DNA of 63,988 bases, counting the filler, from Licmophora abbreviata (lineage: Eukaryota), in assembly GCA_900291995.1 (NCBI GenBank). It is 11 parts of 11 records of this genome, joined end to end, with 100 filler letters (N's around TTAATTAATTAA, not from the genome) between each part and the next. Parts side by side here need not be neighbours in the genome. Positions count along the whole stretch, not along the records: positions 43,775 to 51,063 come from OLMU01005368.1; 10 more parts are not named here. The stretch is one strand, 5' to 3'. The position numbers were made by a program, and so were the translations under genes. The notes beneath the pieces were generated by a model. The model ran no database searches. It had not been told where the DNA came from and worked only from the letters and a program-made list of their open reading frames with translations. Of this stretch, positions 7,916 to 51,488 are shown in pieces (position 1 is the stretch's first letter; each line of letters starts with the position of its first letter).

Positions 7916-8563
7916 GGTTGCTTCGTACTATGTATGGAAGACTGACTACGGGTCAAGAGAAGGTTTGCACTTCAGGATGACATCAAAGTTCCAACGACGA
8001 CAAGTGACACGGGAGTTCTCATTCTCTTCGTTTTGAGTTGCGAATTGGCAGTTCGGGATTGCGTTTTTGCGCGCCAACCTCCTGATAGTTTAATTAACAT
8101 AGAGCTCGAGTAAGCACTTAGTATTGCTAGCTTTGTGCGAGCTCAATTCCACAAAGGTATCAAAACATGCTTGAAGACTTTGGAGGGGGAGACGAGTGTT
8201 AGAACGAGAAGGGGGAGCAAAGAAGCTGTTGAAATGTCCAAATGCAATTTCAGATCAAAGTTGCGTTTACCAATTCTTACTCGTATTTCGCTNNNNNNNN
8301 NNNNNNNNNNNNNNNNNNNNNNNNNNNNNNNNNNNNTTAATTAATTAANNNNNNNNNNNNNNNNNNNNNNNNNNNNNNNNNNNNNNNNNNNNAGATCAAA
8401 CGTTGCGTTTATCAATTCTTACTCGTATTTCGCTCCCCAACACGATGAGCAACAGAGATCCAGGTACAGACCGTCCTTGGAGTCAGCTAGCGTTGAGGGA
8501 CACTGTTGGAAGACTGGCGTCGACTAGATAAACTACGCCCGCGGGCTTGCAATCGCTACATCT

Positions 8564-24236: not shown

Positions 24237-24407
24237 AGTGAGCTGGGACTATCTTTAAATACTGAAAGAGCTCGTGGATGCGATATTGAGTCCGAGAAAG
24301 TAATCTCNNNNNNNNNNNNNNNNNNNNNNNNNNNNNNNNNNNNNNNNNNNNTTAATTAATTAANNNNNNNNNNNNNNNNNNNNNNNNNNNNNNNNNNNNN
24401 NNNNNNN

Positions 24408-26908: not shown

Positions 26909-27523
26909 TGGGAGATTGAGTAGAACGATAGATCGTCGACAGAACTTCGTCGTTCTGATATATAGCGAGTGGCAACAGGCTGAGACCTGAAGGGAATGTT
27001 GTAGTTGCCAGACACGATAGCTTGCGAAAACATTAACTCCTTCTACAACGATCCGCGAAGGTTATCGACTTCGTCTCCGAAAGTGACTGCATGTGTGTAC
27101 GAATACTGATGCATTGCGTCGCGACGTACGCCAAGACAAAATCTCCTTGCGTGATTGTAGAGTATCACGCGAGCCACATCGTCACATCAGCTTTTCTCCT
27201 CGTCGTGTATCATACAGATGGTCTCCTTCGTGTTGCATACCACTCTCCTACAATAGCAGAATGAGTATCGTGACTGAATGGGTGACGACTCACTCGACTC
27301 CTTCGACTTTGGAAAAGTTCGAGCTCCGTTCATTCATCGAGTTCCAAATTCCAAACCGTCTCCAAANNNNNNNNNNNNNNNNNNNNNNNNNNNNNNNNNN
27401 NNNNNNNNNNTTAATTAATTAANNNNNNNNNNNNNNNNNNNNNNNNNNNNNNNNNNNNNNNNNNNNCCCGATAAAAACGATGTAGAACAAGCCTCGATTC
27501 ATCGATTCAGTGGTCTTCAGCTA

Positions 27524-28741: not shown

Positions 28742-29167
28742 TTAGAGAAGNNNNNNNNNNNNNNNNNNNNNNNNNNNNNNNNNNNNNNNNNNNNTTAATT
28801 AATTAANNNNNNNNNNNNNNNNNNNNNNNNNNNNNNNNNNNNNNNNNNNNGAGCATGAAGTATTTAGAGACAGCCACGTGACAATTTGTTTCCTAATGAC
28901 TGCATATCATTTTGTATCACCTCGGAGCTGCGACTCTCCGTTCTCACACGTTTTGATACACCACATCGTTCGCTTCGCGTGAATGCCTTGTGGATGTTCT
29001 GTTGAGTTTCTCCTGTTGTTGACCACCAAGGACACCGGCGACCCTTCGTATGCTTCCTTGAGTGTCTGAGACAGGTCGGGAGGCGTCTTGAAATCGATCC
29101 GTCGGTCCAGAATTGCATTTTTTCTTGCTCGCTACATTCTACACGACTCTTTACGGCGTGACCAAAA

Positions 29168-34524: not shown

Positions 34525-35182
34525 CGTCAGTGTATTGAAATTCTNNNNNNNNNNNNNNNNNNNNNNNNNNNNNNNNNNNNNNNNNNNNTTAATTAATTAA
34601 NNNNNNNNNNNNNNNNNNNNNNNNNNNNNNNNNNNNNNNNNNNNGTGTATTGAAATTCTCTTTTGGACTGTGGAGGGATCCACGGCCACACCTGCAAGTA
34701 CGAGTAGTCAACGAAGTGAACGAGAGAATGGCAGGTGTTGTCCCGATGATCGCACTCGTTGCTCTACAAACGACGCGCGCGCCCTGATTTGCGGAGGTGC
34801 GTTTTTCCGAGATTCTACGGAGATTCACTACCAAAGTCTACGGCGATCTTGAACTCACTTCAACAAACTGACAACACTTTGGAATGCGTCCTCGTAGCTT
34901 TGATATGGAGATGAACGAAGATCAAAGGACGGCCACTCATTTCTCGCAGGGAAACGTCAGAGCCATCAAGCGATGATGTAGGAGCGCGAAGAAGAGCTCG
35001 TGAAAACCATGGAATCTGGAACTTACCAACTTTCAAAGTTAATTTTCGCGAGAAATCCGTCAACTTTCCACTACGTTGTCTATTCGACCATGTTGATGTG
35101 ACGGTCCACAAACGGCGGCGGCTCTGGGCGAAAACTGTTCTCCCTGCTGTGACTGAGACATCTGTTTCGCCTCCAGTCATCG

Positions 35183-39276: not shown

Positions 39277-40232
39277 ATGTCGTCGCCCTACGGAAAGTCG
39301 TACGGAACCACCTCCTCCACTCCGCTGCAGCAGCGCAGGCCTCCGCCGTTTGGAAGCAGTCAGCAGCAGCAGGGCTACTACTACTTCGACACTGAAAATG
39401 AGACTCATCAGACTTCGGACGGCACTGTCTTTTCCATGAAACGACGACACCGAAAAAACACTACCTCTGCTGCTGCTGCTTCTTGGAGGAGGAATCTCCT
39501 GTGCATGTCGCCTCTCCTGGTCTTGTTTCTCTGGAGTGCGGCTGTCGTGACGCACACGACCAACAGCAGTACGAGTAGTGCTACGAGCACTGTGCAGACT
39601 ACAGATGCCATGACGAGTACTTCTTNNNNNNNNNNNNNNNNNNNNNNNNNNNNNNNNNNNNNNNNNNNNTTAATTAATTAANNNNNNNNNNNNNNNNNNN
39701 NNNNNNNNNNNNNNNNNNNNNNNNNCTTCTACTACTGCTGCAAATATGATTCCACTACAGCAGGAGACTGCACAAGCACACAAGGCGCACGCCAAGGAAG
39801 TCCTGCTTGCCAAGCATCATACGCGACATGCGCAGCAGCAGCAACAATCGACAAAGAGCGACATTCCCGTATTGACGCCATTGGGGGAGACCATGCAACA
39901 ACCAGCAGCTGCTTCGTTACAACAGCTTGTAGTAGTCCAACCGCAACAGCAAACCCTATCGGACCAGACTGTGCAGAATCCCGCAACGACGACGACGACA
40001 ACGAACCCAGCCATGGAGACGGCTCCAAGCGCACAAGTCGTCTTGCAAGAACGGACGCAAGCCATGACACAGCAACTTCCACAGACGGTCTACTATTACG
40101 ATCCCGCTCAGAATCAGGGTGGCCTTCCGACGGTGGTCTATGATGCGCAGGGTCGGGCTGTCGATGTGGCGTCTCTGGCGACTCCCCAGACGGAAATTTA
40201 TCTTCAACGACCACTCCAACAACAACCACTCC

Positions 40233-43376: not shown

Positions 43377-43802
43377 CTAGGGACAACAAGACGCACTGAT
43401 GAGGTCGCATCGCTCAAAGACGATCGGCGCCGTCGGACAGAAAGGGGACTCTATTTTATCCTATAGTATTTCAAAGTATTGTATGCATACACAGCCCTTT
43501 TAAGTCATACCGTACAGGAGGAAGTATTGATAGCGCGGCCAGCAGATTCAAGTTCGATCAAGAAAATGGTTCTCTTGGGAGTGTCGCCGCGTTCGCATTC
43601 ACACGACAAAAGTTGAAAGTCCCTCGCGTGCTCTCTACCACCAGTAGTTGACGCTGATACTAGTGCTCAAGGATNNNNNNNNNNNNNNNNNNNNNNNNNN
43701 NNNNNNNNNNNNNNNNNNTTAATTAATTAANNNNNNNNNNNNNNNNNNNNNNNNNNNNNNNNNNNNNNNNNNNNCAAAAGTTGAAAGTCCCTCGCGTGCT
43801 CT

Positions 43803-46800
43803 CTACCACCAGTAGTTGACGCTGATACTAGTGCTCAAGGATCGCACATAGTGCCACATGCCGGACGGTAGGAACAGCGCATCGCCTGGTCCGAGCAAAG
43901 TCTCTTGGTATTTCGCTACCTTGGCCAAGGGATGCAAGTTGTAGTCTTCTCTTTCGCAGTCAACGGCACTCATATTGTTCTGAGCGGCGTACGAGGATCT
44001 CTTATGGTCCGTTCCGCCTCGAATCACGTACAGATTTTTCGATTCGGAGGCGCCGTAGACACGCACGTACTTGTATCCCAATATCTGGACCAACATATTG
44101 TCGTAACTATCGAAATGAAGAGGTGTGCGAGTCCCGCCGGTCCCAATCCAGACGTTGCGATGCAAACAGTGGCCATTGCAAAGCAGAGGAGACTCCAATA
44201 CGTCACTAGACAGGCCAGTAAACTGATCGAGTAGAGGGTGCTGTGCGAGGTAGGCCACGTGTGATGCTGCCAGCTGTGTCGCATCTTGCAACGACCAACG
44301 CGAGCGCCGACAGCTGGGGACCAAATACAACGAGACAAACGAGCGAAACGTCATGAGACATTCCTTCATCCCATCCTTTTCGGTGCTACCCATCATGGAA
44401 CCTAGCTCGATTGGAACTAGCCGGTGTCCGTATAGTCGGACGAGGTTGGTGAAGTCCCTGTAGCAGGAGAGAGTGAGGCAGGTCAGCGACGGGGAGTACT
44501 GAGTACCGACGACGTAGACATGATCGTTTAAACATAAAGAAAGACATGCCGATGGACTCACCGCCATTTGGATATAGCAGGCCATCCATCTGCCATATTT
44601 CTGATCACAACTGGCTCTCCTCGGTCGAAAAAGTTGGAGTTGAACTCATCGGTGTCCATCGCGGCATGGCATTCTGCGATGGGATACTCAATCGCACTTG
44701 ACCAGTCCCTGTTTTGAACACTTTCTGCGGTGGGATGCATCAATTCTGAGCCATTATCGATAACAGGTCGACAGGGACCACAGGAGGCCTGCCACGCACA
44801 ACGTTCGACGTAGTCGCAGAAGTCTCGAACTTTGTCGCGAGGCATTCCGAGAACAACGGCCTTGTCGATCATATTCTGTGCGAGAAGAAAGCTCCCAACG
44901 TGAGCGTAATACAAGGCACTGGTGAATGCACCGCAGCCATAAGCTTCCCGGTAAGAGGTGGTCTCCCACGAAGCATTCTTCTCTAGCTTTGCAAAGAGGT
45001 GCTTTTCCAGCAAGCAGCCAGCTTGCTTACAGAGGTCAAACCTCGAGCTTCGAGCGGCTTGAACGCATCTCTTTAGCATGTCGATGGTTTCGCAATCTTC
45101 CTGAATGTTATCTAGCGCACCCGATCCGATCTGTATGACAAACGCTCTCGCGATTGCCAGCATGCGAATCGGTATCGCGCCGACGGGATTTTCATTCGTG
45201 TCGACGTTCAAAGCCTGCAAGCGGCACTGGAGTGACGCCTCGGCGTCCATTTCACTACCGCCACTAGAAAGACTGTCCGAATCTTCGTCGTCCTCGCTTC
45301 CGCCGAATAGATCATCAATCTCGTCACGAACATTGTTATCGGAGGATTCATCAGCTGGAAAGTCACATTCCCTGATGCACTTTGAGCACGTGCATTCGAA
45401 ACCGTAGTTTCGCAACGCAGCCTGTCGCACCGCAAGAGGCTCATCCGACGCAATGTAACTAATACAGAGTTCCTCACTAGGCTCAATGTCCCGTAGCGCG
45501 ATACAGTGTATCGTCAATGGTGCTCCCCGGTCTACTATTGGTCGATACAACGCTACCACATTGGGATCGCATGAATGATTCATTTTGCATGTAGTTCGGT
45601 ACATAGCGGTGCCGTCCAGCGGAGGAAACAGACGATCCAAGTCGTCGCCTCTATCGTCATGCCCCAGCTCGTCCATATTAAGGCCACACAGAAAGGCTGT
45701 GATCTCCTCGTCAGTATAATCCGAGTCACCGTCGCAGATGCGAGCCTCCATACCAGTGTTCAACGTCGCGTCGGCCTCTTGCTCGCCAGTGTCTGATTCG
45801 TCACATCGACTGGCATCATCCTCGTCTTTCCCAACCATTCCTGCTCGTTCCAGACACTTAATAATATCATTTCGATGGCGATATCGCCAGTCCCTGTCAA
45901 ATATCTCTCGACTCAACGGATTTCTTTGTCGAATGCCAATGGCGTTCTGTTCAAACGACCCAATCACTCTTGCGAATGTCAGTTGCGTACAGAGTCGATC
46001 AATGAGACTCTGGTTGCCTTCAGACTGCACTATGAGTGCATGTTGCTTCCATGCCCGTCTCAGGTAGCTGGAAGATTCCTCACAGAGTCGTCGCAGGATG
46101 GTGTCCAACTGCTCGGCCTCGGTAATGCCAGCGGGGCTCGTCAACACGGGTGCAGTTGCCACGTCCCACCAAGGATTCGACAGAAAGTCCCAGTGGCGTT
46201 GCAGTAGCGAACTTTCGTCGAAGATCTTATCATTGTTTCTCTCATTAACACTAGTTCGCCTTGCATGCATCCTTTCCTCGACCAGTATCTGTGAAAGGAC
46301 ATCGGCAACCGCCAAGAAGATTTCATTGTTCTGGATGGCATGCATCTTGAACTGTAGCAGTGGATGCATCGAATCTGACTGCGATATCTCGCCAGTACAA
46401 AGTAACGAATGAGTCTGCCAGTGATCCTGTTCGCACTCCGGACTACAGTAGATCTCCCCACAGTCGTTTCGACAAGGGACACGCGTCGAGGAGCCACAAT
46501 TGCCACCTACATTCGCCTTGTCGTTTTCTTCCCAAAGGTGACTTCGGTTGATACTCCCAGCAGCCAGTTTGATACTCAGACTTCTGCTCCTGACAAACGC
46601 TCGACAGTAACGACATACAAGCGTGCCAGACTGCACATTGTCGAGCGACTGGAGAGATATAGCTGGGCGCTCAACGAAAATCACGGCATGTTTGCTGATG
46701 CGCTGTACGGCGACCAAATGCCGGCCTTTCTCATCGTCTATTCTGTGCTCAAACAGCTGAGGAGTAGAGGAGGGTGCGGAAGGACGAGAAACAAGGGTAG

Positions 46801-46855
46801 AGTGAGAAAATTGGTCTTGAATGGCCGAAACGCCCCCTTCGTCCGGCCTCATCAT
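43803..46855 (-). CDS. SET-MYND (SMYD-like) methyltransferase fused to a JmjC (JMJD5/KDM8-like) domain (exons 46855-44562, 44457-43803; ~982 aa)
   Basis: KGRHLVA, MYND finger CRYC..C..C..YCSPEC..H..HSLLC, MNHSCDPN, ELCISY, YGFECTCSKC; then PVVIRNMADGWPAISKWR|DF, YLAQHPL, TPLHFDSYDN, GYK, WHYVRSL, SISVNYWW. Confidence 0.9.
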
Positions 46856-47174
46856 GGTTCATCGGTGTTTCAAGTTTCACGCCCAGTTTCGAAAGAAGTT
46901 GTTGAGTGGCGCTCAAGCAACGTCTGCCATGCCTGATGCCCGGGACTGTCAGTCACACTTGTAACACAACGTCATCATACATGACTGAAGACGCGAGCTC
47001 CGGGTTTTGGTCATGCCAGACTTATTCGCCAGACAGAAGGCCGACAGTCATTCTTACACGAATAGTCAGAGACACAACAGGCCCATAGGACATTCTAGTC
47101 ATATAAAAAAGCAGTCACATTGCCACACTTTTTCCCGTGGCTCAAGAAAGCAGAAAAGAGACGAAAGACCAACC

Positions 47175-50100
47175 ATGACGGGGCAACGCCACCACATTCG
47201 GCGACCTCATCACACTAAGGGCTCTTTCGCGTCAAAGATCCAAGCTCGTAGGCTCTTAGAGATTGATGAACTGGTAAAGACAGACTTGGAGGCGCAGAGT
47301 ACGGCCGGAAGTCGACGTCATGGGCGGAGGGGCTCAGACGGCTTTTCCGTCCGAAGTCGACAAGCGAGTTCTTCGGGTAGCAGAGAAGGACAACAGTTAC
47401 TGTACGCCTCCAAGCATGCCAAAAGACGGAGACAGCGTGTGGCAAAGAAAACCAGCGCACGCCATGGACGTGTGAGATTGAATGACTCGTCGATTCAGCA
47501 ACGGAAGAGGTTTACTCTTGCAGCTTTTGGACTTGCCATGGTGCTATGTCTTGTTGACGACATGAGGTTTGCCAAGGTCCTCTACGGCTTTGGTCGCCGC
47601 TTGTGTGGCATAAACGAAGTAATAGACCGAGACAGCTTCACAGGATACTGGGAGAACAAGCAAGAGCCGGTCTATACCTACATTTCCAGTCCTCGTGAGT
47701 TGAACGAGCCCGACATCAGCAGTGAAGTGGCTGTGGCGTATGCTGTCACACTTCGAAGTTGCCCCGAAAATCTCAATGGCTGTCATCATGATCCCGGTCA
47801 TGCCTTCTACGAGGCCTCGGCGGTGCTACAGCACCACATTTGCGGGGCACATCAAGGGACGAGTGGCAGGTACGACGACTGCGTGTTTTATGCATTGGTT
47901 CATAGAGAGGCAATATACTGCATGACACCCAGCGGAGAGCGATATGACCGCGTCCAGATCCTTGAAGACCTTGGATACTTTGTAAAGATTTGGGGAGCGC
48001 CAATGGCACGCTCTGACTTTCAGTCGAATTTCCTGCAGACGTACATCGAAAACGATGCCGGGGTCAATGACTACACTGTTCTCAATGCCTGGCGTCTTCA
48101 GCTTCATGACATTATTGTGCTGGTCGACTTTTCGACGCTCATGCTCAACCGACCAGATGAGCTGTACGACGAGTTTGTAGCCAACACAACTCTTAAGGCC
48201 ATGTACACTCGAGATTACGCAAAGACTATATCGAATAGCGCCAATATGGGGATCAATCCTGGATTCTTTCTACTGAAGCCTTCCAACGACACCTTTTACG
48301 ATCTAAATGCGTTGATCACATCAAGTTCGTACGATCATATTAATGGCTGGGAAGGGAGCGGAGTGACAGGTTTTGACTGTGCAATGGGATCGAGAGGCGC
48401 CTTGACGTACACGTACGGTGTGCTGAACCAGTCGGAAGCTAGAGAGATCGATCGATGCTTGTACGGGAATGCCAACGAAGATCCCATTGACGAGGACTCT
48501 GGAAGCTGCCGAGACGGGACAGGTCTTGCCCCCTGCGAAGAGGACTGCCGCAACATGAATTCATCTAACATATTCGTGGCCAACCCGCGCATAGTATGCG
48601 GAGAGCCATGGGACTGCTACTATGACGACGAGTGGGACAATGTAACCAAACCGCTATGCGAGGAGTATCATCGGACATGGTACCAGCACCGATTGGATTT
48701 TGAGGATGCGTATATGATTCTACCATCCATACGAAATGGAACGTACCATGACGATATATTCCTTGGGTATTGCAGCGAGAAAGGTTGGCGAGGCTATGAA
48801 ATGATGCTTCCAGACAATGGAGAGTGTGTCGAAGGCGAAACCGTAACCTCAGAAACCACTCAGGAAGTGCAAGAACTAACTCAAGGATTGTCGATTACGG
48901 CTGGTCAGTGGAGTGGAAACGAAATGACTTGTATCAGTGGCTTTGTTAGCACTCCGAACTTCCCACTGGCGGAGCATCTGGTCAGATTTCAGGTAACAGT
49001 GAATGGGGTTTTGCAGGAAGGGACCAACGAGACAGCAGTGCAATTTAACTCCAGTGGCTTCTTTTGGAATGACGTTGTAGTCTCGGGACTCGATTCAGCT
49101 TTCGGGTCGAGCAACGTCGTAAACGTGACGGCAGAGATCGGTCAGGACACTTCTCCCGAGGGGCCGAACTATCATTACATTCTCAGTGTTGAGGTCGTCG
49201 TGTACGGGAGCGTGACCAACATGATGTACCCCAGCGCATCCCCAAGTACCGCGCCGAGTGGTAGTGTCGCTCCAAGCATTGCCCCCAGTGGATCCCCGAC
49301 GCATCTAACAAGTGCCACGCCGAGTCAAAGTCCAGCGCCCAGCGCTACTCCAAGCTCAGGGCCGAGTCAAAGCGCTGCGCCTAGCCTCGCCCCAAGTAAA
49401 AGCTCGGCTCCAACCACGTTCGGTATGTTAGCAATTTGCTTCTCTGCAACAATCGATCGATTGCAAGCTAACTTTTCTCCCGTTTTACTTCTTTCTTGGG
49501 TGATCTCAGTCTCGTATGGGCTTCAGCCGCAATGTAATAATTCCGACAGTGATGCCTTCGTAATGTGCCTTGACCTCAGATCTACAACTGGACAAGTAGA
49601 GGATTGGATGGATCACTTCGCAAGCGCGAGGCATTTCTACGAATCGATCATTGTTGGCGATCTAGAAGATACGCCAGTTGACGGGCTCGAGCATGCACCG
49701 GCTTGTGAAGGGGGCTACCCTGATACTGTCGATGATGTATATATTTGTGGAAGTGACGCAGTACTGGACGGGGCGGGCGGCGATGTCAACGTGCTCGGTA
49801 CTGCAGGCCCATACTGGCTAAGAAGAAGCGGAACTAACAATATCACCGGAGACAACTACTATACTGCCCTAACAGGGTCCATGACGTTTGATACATACGA
49901 TGTAGCTCAAATGATTTCCGAGGGATCGTTTCAAAGCGTTGTCCGACACGAAATGGTAAGTCAAAGATTGGCAGAAAGTTAAGCTTGCTTTTGTTGCTAT
50001 CAGGTTCTGCTCTCACGCTTTCGGTAAATTGATCTCGTCCTCCATCCTCGGCAGGGACACGTACTGGGTTTGGGTACCCTGTGGGGGTTGAACGGGCTCT

Positions 50101-50737
50101 ACAACTCAACGACCTCTCCTGGCGTCTACACCTCGGGAACCAAGGCCGAAGAAGCGTGGCACAATCTTGGATGCACGGGCACGCTTCCTGTAGAGACAAA
50201 CTTTGGAGAAGGAACCGCTCACCGCCACTGGGATGAAGCATGCTGTACGTATTGTCTCATGTGTGATCAGGACTGTCGAGTAAGGTGCGCGTGGAGTGTT
50301 CTGACCCAGTGCAACTTTTCTTTTGAAAAACAGTGGATAGAGAAACAATGACTGGGTTCGCTGACCCTAACATGGCCTTCTCTCTCGTTTCGATATGTGC
50401 GCTGGAGGATCTAGGATACACCGTCGATCATAGCCAAGCCGACAATTATACGATTGACGATCTGGGAGAGTGCGGAAGTCACTGTCCTGCTGCTTCGGGA
50501 TCAAACCGTAGAGCGCAACAGAAGCCGCAGTCACGGCGCCGATTGCCGAGTACATGGCAAGGAGAGACGGAGGTCAAGAACTTTGCCAAAGCGCACCTTC
50601 AGCAAAGACGAGCGATCGGCGCACAGTCGACGGTTCCAGAGGGGACATTGTTCGTAGGAGGCGACTACGTTGACGTTCTCTATAGAGAAAATGGCGACAT
50701 TCGCGTGGTAGGGCTTGCCTGGGAAGAAGTTCAGTAG
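47175..50737 (+). CDS. Type II membrane fusion protein: GT8-like domain + beta-rich domain + Pro/Ser stalk + M8 (leishmanolysin-like) zinc metallopeptidase (exons 47175-49422, 49510-49955, 50055-50244, 50334-50737; ~1095 aa)
   Basis: TM FTLAAFGLAMVLCLV; GT8-like AYAV, LNAWRL..HDIIVLVD, INPGFFLLKP; PSxxPS repeats; LGTAGP, HEM|GHVLGLGTLW, HWDEACLDRETMTG, ALEDLGYTVD. The spliced length is divisible by 3. Confidence 0.8.
49230..49419 (+). repeat. Coding tandem PSxxPS (Pro/Ser/Ala/Thr) repeats forming a stalk
   Basis: PSASPSTAPSGSVAPSIAPSGSPT...PSQSAAPSLAPSKSSAPT. Confidence 0.85.
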
Positions 50738-51488
50738 CCGTGCTACAGCGTCGTATACTTATGTATGTAGTGGAAGGCTAGTCATTGACATTTGATCGTC
50801 GTCCTGGCTTGTAGCAGTCGCGGAATGTATGATTCTGTCGAAGTGGCACCACCAGTGGAAAGGAAGGCTTCTCGCACGCTTTTGCATTGACTAGAAATAA
50901 GATCTACATGTAGAACCGAGAATCCGTCCAGCACGTTCAGCATCCAGCGAGTCGAGTCAAAGCTGGAAGAAATCGTGCCGGCACGAAGCAGCCTACCTGG
51001 ATTTCATCATAGTCCATGCTCATTAGAAATCAACGGTGAGAAGACTCAAATGTTAAACAATCANNNNNNNNNNNNNNNNNNNNNNNNNNNNNNNNNNNNN
51101 NNNNNNNTTAATTAATTAANNNNNNNNNNNNNNNNNNNNNNNNNNNNNNNNNNNNNNNNNNNNTGACGCCGAACGTCGAGGCCTGTATATTGATGACCAG
51201 TGAAGAAGAAGATAGAGACAATCGAATCGTATGCTCGACGCGGTGGTCGTCAATACATCAAATATCATACAATAGCCAAGAGCCGAAACAAATTTGTGAG
51301 CAGTCAGGGTGCGCACCCACCGTAGAATGCGTAGAAATTGTACTGAGACACCCAAACTTCGCACAAAATCAAAACATCAGCCGGCGACGTCTCGCTGTGG
51401 CCTTTCCATTGCATTGCCACCATACCGGTACCGGTATCCATCACCTTTTCCTCTCTCTTGTTCCCTTTGTCATTGCAAACATCACACA

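Follow-up and report, generated by a model that had tools for sequence, protein, structure and literature searches.

We analyzed a gene at positions 47175-50737 (+ strand) of a 63,988-nucleotide (nt) stretch of Licmophora abbreviata DNA (GenBank assembly GCA_900291995.1), referred to here as the window, in which positions 43,775 to 51,063 come from record OLMU01005368.1. As predicted from its sequence, this is one nuclear gene of the intron-containing, algal type, with three or four exons, and its product carries a leishmanolysin-type (M8-like) zinc protease behind a domain with the fold of GT8 glycosyltransferases. We consider it moderately likely that the protein is a protease of the secretory pathway or cell surface, held on a stalk and either anchored or shed, whose carrier is a pseudo-glycosyltransferase. 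Both domains are of known kinds; their combination is new relative to the literature searched, in which no paper on a glycosyltransferase-leishmanolysin fusion was found. An earlier, sequence-only reading of this DNA knew of no described protein with this architecture, a claim that stands for the literature searched and is qualified by the sequence databases, where a second fragment with both domains (P0051) was found. As a whole, that earlier interpretation is partly supported, with sugar binding by the domain and a mucilage or wall glycoprotein target remaining conjectural.

A 997-codon open frame occupies positions 46989-49982 (+), and translation from the ATG at 47175 yields 927 residues ending in ...VVRHEM. 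Two further coding pieces lie in other frames, one running from GHVLG to HWDEAC (50055-50244) and the other from DRETMTG to the stop (50334-50737). Canonical introns (49956-50054 and 50245-50333) join the three pieces in frame into a protein of 1124 residues with one terminal stop; residues are numbered here by this two-intron model. That a single continuous frame leads from a membrane anchor through the glycosyltransferase-like domain and a stalk into the protease had been noticed before, and the observation is confirmed by the 997-codon frame. The stalk and the first 170 to 250 residues of the protease module share an exon and a frame with the glycosyltransferase-like domain, which supports the view that this is one gene.

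The GT8-like domain and its catalytic signature

The glycosyltransferase-like domain covers residues ~183-550 (47721-48824, +) and contains Cys-rich insertions. An exhaustive HMMER search with the 927-residue product of the first exon returned 855 proteins (E ≤ 0.001); of the 150 best among them, most match residues ~140-560 and 10 match residues ~680-927. A word-indexed protein search with the whole of region 115-927 found P0004 alone. Pfam recognized no family in the three exon pieces at E up to 1, and PF01501 (GT8) gave no match to the window domain at that limit or at 0.01. Searches of the Protein Data Bank (PDB) by phmmer with the glycosyltransferase-like part and with the N-terminal part of the protease returned nothing, or chance U-box matches at E ~1. 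Across the family, the Pfam GT8 model is seen weakly, in 5 of 84 members.

In alignment A1, the window domain was combined with 83 homologues, selected for coverage of 250 or more residues and for being no longer than 720 amino acids. All 20 matches of the A1 profile in the PDB at E ≤ 1 are GT8 chains (glycogenin-1, glycogenin-2 or Skp1 alpha-galactosyltransferase), the best with an E value of 4.5e-7, and the aligned stretch spans 34 positions, the Lys...DxD region. An AlphaFold model built with A1 reached a predicted local distance difference test (pLDDT) score of 87.9 and a predicted template modeling score of 0.86; the single sequence gave a pLDDT of 31 and an unusable model. In Foldseek, which returned 114 PDB matches at E ≤ 0.001, glycogenin-1 ranked first (E 3.6e-9; template modeling score by target, 0.61-0.64), followed by LgtC, Gat1, XXYLT1 and UGGT. 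VIA-align superimposed the model on glycogenin with a Z score of 18.4 and a root mean square deviation of 3.5 over 239 of 256 residues, and all 50 entries that it listed are GT8 or GT8-like (glycogenin, LgtC, LARGE1, UGGT, GlyE and WbbM). The top ESM Atlas cluster (score 0.96, 184 of 256 features) is eukaryotic, has PF01501 on 45% of its members and has Bacillariophyta as its commonest phylum. These comparisons, the structural ones made with a predicted model, show that the N-terminal domain has the GT-A fold of the GT8 type that had been proposed for it. The near-invariant Trp, Gly and Pro residues and the eight Cys that define the fold in A1 are kept, and the domain differs from GT8 enzymes such as glycogenin and LgtC in carrying ~100 extra residues with conserved Cys.

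The catalytic residues present a different picture. In the family consensus, a Lys is followed by DxD, by a Gln within a QGLL stretch and by H-x-x-x-C-x-K-P-W; canonical members thus carry the K, DxD, Q, H and K signature, and the stretch from Lys to DxD is the one that aligns to glycogenin. The DxD and HxxGxxKPW motifs of GT8 proteins are said, in the excerpt of one paper available, to coordinate Mn2+ and bind nucleoside diphosphate sugars (PMC7533613). The window domain has neither an intact metal-binding DxD motif nor an intact HxxGxxKPW-type motif. By column counts in A1, position 302 is Lys in 60 of 83 rows and Val in the window, position 318 is Asp in 75 of 84 rows and is kept, and position 320, Asp in 54 of 84 rows and Ser in 6 of 84, is Ser. 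Farther along, the window has Arg at position 407 (Gln in 50 of 84 rows), Asn at position 470 (His in 47 and Asn in 11 of 82 rows) and Glu at position 477 (Lys in 53 and Glu in 6 of 82 rows). The D318-F-S320 triplet (48126-48134, +) sits on the family's DxD columns, aligned to the DAD of glycogenin, with Ser in place of the second Asp; N470...C-G-E477-P-W (48582-48611, +) occupies the H-x-x-x-C-x-K-P-W columns, with Asn for His and Glu for Lys. The VDFS that was singled out from the sequence as standing where DxD is expected therefore falls exactly on the DxD columns, and the degeneracy extends to five of the six signature residues (K302V, D320S, Q407R, H470N and K477E, with D318 kept). The combination K-D-D-H-K occurs in 46 of 84 aligned members; the window reads V-D-S-N-E, and its three closest relatives have x-D-S-x-E in common with it. 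The GT8-like domain is predicted to be catalytically dead.

Loss of the signature is a property of a clade. When all homologues were aligned to the A1 hidden Markov model (HMM), 102 domain segments covered five of the positions, and 50 of these were canonical. A quick IQ-TREE analysis was run on 231 columns of the C-terminal half with the 112 of 151 segments that were at least 80% filled, leaving out the split matches of P0022, P0026, P0041 and P0049. The window row lies within a clade of 33 rows (Shimodaira-Hasegawa-like approximate likelihood ratio test [SH-aLRT], 100) in which the canonical signature is found in none, and nearly all of another clade, with 54 rows (SH-aLRT 98), reads K-D-D-Q-H-K. 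The domain is followed by 100 or more residues in 16 of the 33 rows of the window's clade versus 2 of the 79 other rows; tail lengths were taken from database entries, many of them fragments, and are lower bounds. Both long-tailed rows outside the clade are first copies of tandem glycosyltransferase pairs. Two tandem GT8-like copies were noted in P0037 (938 amino acids), with K-D-D-Q-H-K in both, and in P0045 (962 amino acids), where the final Lys has been replaced in each copy to give K-D-D-Q-H-L.

The extra modules recognized in the relatives scanned are VWA (P0004, P0021, P0022 and P0040), DUF7640 (P0010) and CAP (P0041). In P0026 (2495 amino acids) and P0049 (2925 amino acids), a degenerate GT8-like domain comes first and is followed by DUF1800 and DUF1501, which is another unrecorded pairing. 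A Fisher test relating tail length to signature (p 0.008) was dropped as evidence of repeated association, since the trait is confined to one clade in the tree; the payload pattern accordingly counts as one evolutionary event.

A bifunctional enzyme, in which the GT8-like domain would remain active through a non-canonical metal and donor site and one polypeptide would both glycosylate and cleave substrates in the secretory pathway, is in our estimation unlikely. D318 is still in place, as are two further acidic residues, D328 and D332 (Asp in 78 and 64 of 84 rows, respectively), and the residues that define the fold; S320 and E477 are conserved in the four closest members, which hints that the former active site is under constraint. 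However, five of the six signature positions were replaced at once, among them the His and Lys of the HxxGxxKPW-type motif and the Lys before DxD, and the His is retained in 0 of the 33 clade rows.

The protease module and the integrity of the fusion

The M8-like module is encoded in three parts. The first (49510-49955, +) runs from YGLQP to HEM and includes H925 and E926, encoded at 49947-49952. An exon at 50055-50244 (+) contributes the second zinc His, H929 (50058-50060), and a distal third His, H985 (50226-50228). The last exon (50334-50737, +) holds the Met-turn residue M996 (50348-50350), a conserved Cys pair, a basic stretch with an RRL and a conserved C-terminal tail, with the stop at 50735-50737. 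The zinc site thus comprises HExxH with its catalytic Glu (H925, E926 and H929), H985 located 56 residues past H929, and M996 in ETM. The profile of alignment A2, made with MAFFT, has leishmanolysin 1LML as its single PDB match at E ≤ 1 (E 2.2e-10), and in this profile alignment HExxH, the third His (HWDE) and the Met-turn (ETMTG) align to the corresponding 1LML residues. These alignments show the C-terminal domain to be of the leishmanolysin type, with an apparently intact zinc site, and the third His and Met-turn reported in the sequence-only reading are both present.

Domain searches with Pfam had a mixed outcome. PF01457 exceeded its 21-bit cutoff in 6 of 10 protease-type homologues; of the remaining four, three are truncated ahead of or inside the catalytic region, and the full-length P0052 gave no match. 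On the window's three exon pieces, scanned separately and unjoined, PF01457 gave no match, and the spliced protein matches homologues at E values of 1e-55 to 1e-84. The per-domain Pfam check proposed with the sequence-only reading is thus negative for the window's own pieces and positive in relatives, weakly so for GT8. A word-indexed search with protease part 770-927 among proteins of 509 to 1623 amino acids found none. The A2 profile search of longer proteins covered 1722 to 4915 amino acids, with the band of ~700 to 1700 amino acids outside it, and within the range covered the relatives are modules of giant multidomain proteins, mostly bacterial, at 28 to 41% identity. Copies of the short M8-like module occur there in proteins of 1756 to 4833 residues (P0154-P0185), most of them from metagenome records and including four Planctomycete records and one from Batrachochytrium salamandrivorans, which raises the question of the origin of the algal module.

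The module resembles leishmanolysin (GP63; M8, PF01457, 1LML) in its HExxH, in a third zinc His far downstream, as opposed to the HExxHxxGxxH arrangement, and in its Met-turn. It differs in size, with ~345 residues versus 478 in the 1LML chain, and the central part alone aligns (130 profile positions; Pfam positions ~192-369 of 529). Leishmanolysin carries a glycosylphosphatidylinositol anchor; the window version is the C-terminal module of a predicted multidomain type II protein. Leishmanolysin is listed among the enriched families in the excerpt available of a diatom secretome paper (PMC9054022). Accessory domains on M08 proteases are also recorded in stramenopiles, for example an EGF-like domain on an M08 protease of Phytophthora infestans, and, unlike the window protein, none of those mentioned in the excerpted text has a glycosyltransferase-like accessory domain (PMC8035641).

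The two introns assumed above are confirmed by homologues that lack them. The first (49956-50054, +; 99 nt, GTAAGT..CAG) holds a TAA and splits the zinc motif, HEM|GHVLG, as had been recognized from the sequence; the second (50245-50333, +; 89 nt, GTACGT..CAG) is in phase 1. In a local phmmer comparison, spliced residues 778-1123 align with residues 55-402 of the intron-free P0075 unbroken across both joins (E 7.4e-84), and the intron-free P0052, P0056, P0100, P0112 and P0129 likewise match the spliced product (E 1e-55 to 1e-81). The three window pieces occupy consecutive columns in A2. The C terminus of the spliced protein coincides with that of its homologues; those of P0075, P0052, P0056, P0100 and P0129 lie no more than a few residues away. 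Because the alignment to intron-free homologues is colinear and unbroken, we regard both GT..AG introns as confirmed. Three short contigs of another run (X1, the kind of which was guessed) cover the locus and contain no joints; one of them reads straight across intron 49956-50054, and X1 is uninformative on splicing.

A third intron at 49423-49509 (+) is probable. It was the sole candidate returned by an intron scan of the gene and is 87 nt long, in frame and free of stops, with a GTATGT donor, a CTAAC branch-like site, a pyrimidine tract and a CAG acceptor. Its GC content is 0.40, compared to 0.50-0.52 in the flanking exon; the confirmed introns have values of 0.455 and 0.461. If retained, the segment would encode 29 hydrophobic residues led by a Met, with no counterpart in homologues, the Pro/Ser/Thr-rich linkers of which lead directly to YGLQ, where the conserved protease sequence starts; tblastn homology to P0075 starts at 49506. 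Splicing would leave a protein of 1095 residues. No further hidden intron is expected in residues 141-684, since the P0005 alignment there lacks large gaps. Of the three introns originally proposed, two are therefore established and the third is plausible.

The same 87 nt bear on whether the fusion acts as one protein. The locus could give rise to two products, with the protease also, or only, made alone, either from an internal start in the retained segment or by cleavage of the stalk. Read through, the segment gives a Met and two hydrophobic stretches, resembling a signal peptide, directly before the conserved protease start, and standalone homologues such as P0075 begin with a hydrophobic leader. 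We nevertheless find this account improbable, as the segment bears all the marks of an intron together with a lower GC content, the reading frame stays open and colinear from the stalk onward, and another protein, P0051, joins both domains directly. Other relatives, moreover, carry the protease behind stalks and other domains; in P0102, P0104, P0112 and P0145 a Pro/Ser/Thr-rich linker stands directly ahead of the module, as it does here. The segment could be what remains of the signal peptide or leader of a protease gene that was once separate.

Among the 185 proteins compared, the window protein and P0051 alone matched both the A1 and the A2 HMMs. In P0051, a fragment of 281 residues, the glycosyltransferase-like domain runs directly into the start of the protease without a stalk; it is not sister to the window row in the tree, in a part that lacks resolution. 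Given P0051 and the other C-terminal modules in the glycosyltransferase-like clade, the fusion is one case of a wider pattern and not a lone oddity. A chimeric assembly driven by repeats is unlikely, because the stalk DNA contains neither a tandem array nor long repeats, only degenerate 36-nt units with 64 to 75% identity. More generally, that two genes, each with a Pro/Ser stalk, were joined in the assembly or gene model is highly improbable: the join does fall in the low-complexity stalk, relatives do have the glycosyltransferase-like domain with a stalk (P0004) or a stalk with the protease (P0102, P0104 and P0145), and coverage of the locus by one other run amounts to just three short contigs, but the stalk DNA has no tandem array and its units are diverged, the frame is kept throughout, the masked N runs lie outside the gene and P0051 is an independent join of both domains.

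Predicted membrane topology and the proposed carrier role

Residues 1-112 (47175-47510, +) form a basic, Ser-rich tail that aligns with P0017 and P0028 and is predicted to be cytosolic. It is followed by a short hydrophobic segment, residues 113-127 (47511-47555, +), preceded by RKR, which would act as a signal anchor. This is the transmembrane anchor of the sequence-only reading; it is present and weak, being the sole 19-residue window with a Kyte-Doolittle mean above 1.6 (1.62, over a stretch of ~15 residues), and a hydrophobic stretch occurs at the same place in all seven rows of alignment A3. We infer a type II membrane topology from this arrangement. An RRL-C motif at residues 141-144 (47595-47606, +) is a candidate processing site of the RXL type. 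In A3, where the tail and anchor are conserved throughout, R(R/K)L follows the anchor in 7 of 7 aligned N termini, with a Cys directly after it in four, after one residue in one, after three residues in one and not at all in P0028; P0005 has RQLC at this place. Both RRL motifs reported earlier, one after the anchor (141-143) and one near the C terminus (1059), are indeed present.

By analogy, the protein may be cleaved at RRL 141-143. In diatom biosilica proteins, RXL domains behind segments that target the endoplasmic reticulum (ER) are removed proteolytically, according to the excerpt available (PMC5525289). The likeness to the proteins treated there, Sin1 and the silaffins, is that the RRL lies a short distance after an ER-targeting hydrophobic segment; as excerpted, those proteins differ in having their own cleavable signal peptides and no enzyme domains, whereas the window motif follows a signal anchor and has a conserved Cys next to it (PMC5525289). 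With a conserved Cys in that position, the motif may be simply structural.

Between the two domains lie a conserved module and the stalk. The module, residues ~552-684 (48828-49226, +), corresponds to the putative "beta-rich domain" of the sequence-only reading; P0005, P0014 and P0015 align with it, as does the C-terminal part of P0004, in which it comes after a VWA domain, and searches of Pfam and the ESM Atlas gave no match and no usable match, respectively. The stalk, residues 685-749 (49227-49422, +), is as rich in Pro and Ser as had been described: its 65 residues include 14 Pro, 20 Ser, 7 Thr and 11 Ala.

These features are consistent with a model in which the product would be a type II membrane protein with a basic cytosolic tail, a signal anchor, the RRL-C motif and, in the lumen or outside the cell, the GT8-fold domain, the middle module, the Pro/Ser stalk and the C-terminal M8-like protease. 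The GT8-like domain would no longer bind Mn2+ and a uridine diphosphate sugar or transfer sugar; as a non-catalytic carrier, it could route the protein to, or retain it in, the Golgi and secretory pathway, or could bind glycan or an active glycosyltransferase partner. The protease would be the working end, held out on a stalk that is probably glycosylated, and the whole ectodomain may be released if the protein is cut at the conserved RRL behind the anchor. Since dead GT8-like carriers bear other extracellular modules in relatives, the protease would be one interchangeable payload. We extend this model tentatively, and with some doubt, to the whole dead-GT8 clade, which could be a general type II carrier in the algal lineage that routes interchangeable payloads (M8 protease, VWA, CAP, DUF7640 and others) through the Golgi, may dock them on a specific glycan or an active glycosyltransferase complex and could set them free at a conserved RXL site; the window gene would then encode a glycan-addressed, sheddable protease.

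Cosmc is a precedent for a non-catalytic protein of a glycosyltransferase family. Within GT8, the excerpted account of GAUT5, GAUT6 and GAUT7 describes them as non-catalytic Golgi anchors of GAUT1, and they are similar to the window protein in being GT8-family type II proteins that hold another enzyme in the secretory pathway (PMC7533613). There, the partner is a separate polypeptide, whereas the payload in the window protein is covalently fused; DxD and HxxGxxKPW, conserved in all GAUT1-family proteins by the same excerpt, are lost in the window protein (PMC7533613).

Several points weigh against the carrier model. The anchor is short and weakly hydrophobic, and RRL cleavage is a guess from a three-residue motif. 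Both Pfam, on the window's own pieces, and phmmer, on the PDB, are silent. The structure model was built on an alignment whose largest group is the canonical members and so reports the fold of the family, not the state of the window's active site. The residue-by-residue alignment to solved GT8 structures covers the Lys/DxD stretch alone (34 positions); the assignment of the His and Lys rests on their likeness to HxxGxxKPW, and the family Gln at position 407 is presumably the counterpart of Q189 in LgtC. Some GT-A enzymes work without a canonical DxD, and the conservation of S320 and E477 among the four closest members could mean a function changed and not lost. Finally, with tail lengths being lower bounds, the link between payload and degeneracy amounts to one clade and not to many independent events.

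If the dead GT8 domain is indeed a targeting or binding device, it would join the few pseudo-glycosyltransferases that have a defined role other than catalysis and would offer a way to study how proteases and adhesion modules are positioned at the surface of these algae. A GT8-like family that is almost invisible to Pfam has one clade that lost the catalytic signature, and half of the rows in this clade are extended by at least 100 residues, with extracellular modules where scanned, one of them an apparently intact leishmanolysin-type protease; these points are covered neither by Pfam, the sole family library scanned, nor by the literature searched. For annotation, the lesson is that routine domain scans miss such genes, in which an intron splits the zinc motif and the GT-A domain is divergent.

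Start codon and surroundings of the gene

An upstream in-frame ATG at 47013, 162 bases before 47175, would lengthen the tail by 54 basic residues; the start at 47175 is favored by homologue P0017, whose first Met aligns with it. By tblastn, no paralogues of the gene were found elsewhere in the window. A divergent open frame of 766 codons (44558-46858, -) lies ~300 bases from the gene and encodes a SET domain (PF00856, E 6.3e-10), with a weak MYND zinc-finger match. Ten sites in the window consist of two runs of exactly 44 N around 12 bases (1121-1220, 2819-2918, 8293-8392, 24308-24407, 27367-27466, 28751-28850, 34545-34644, 39626-39725, 43675-43774 and 51064-51163). The nearest pair is 330 bases downstream of the gene's stop, and every N run is outside the gene; the regular form of the pairs suggests masking rather than assembly gaps.

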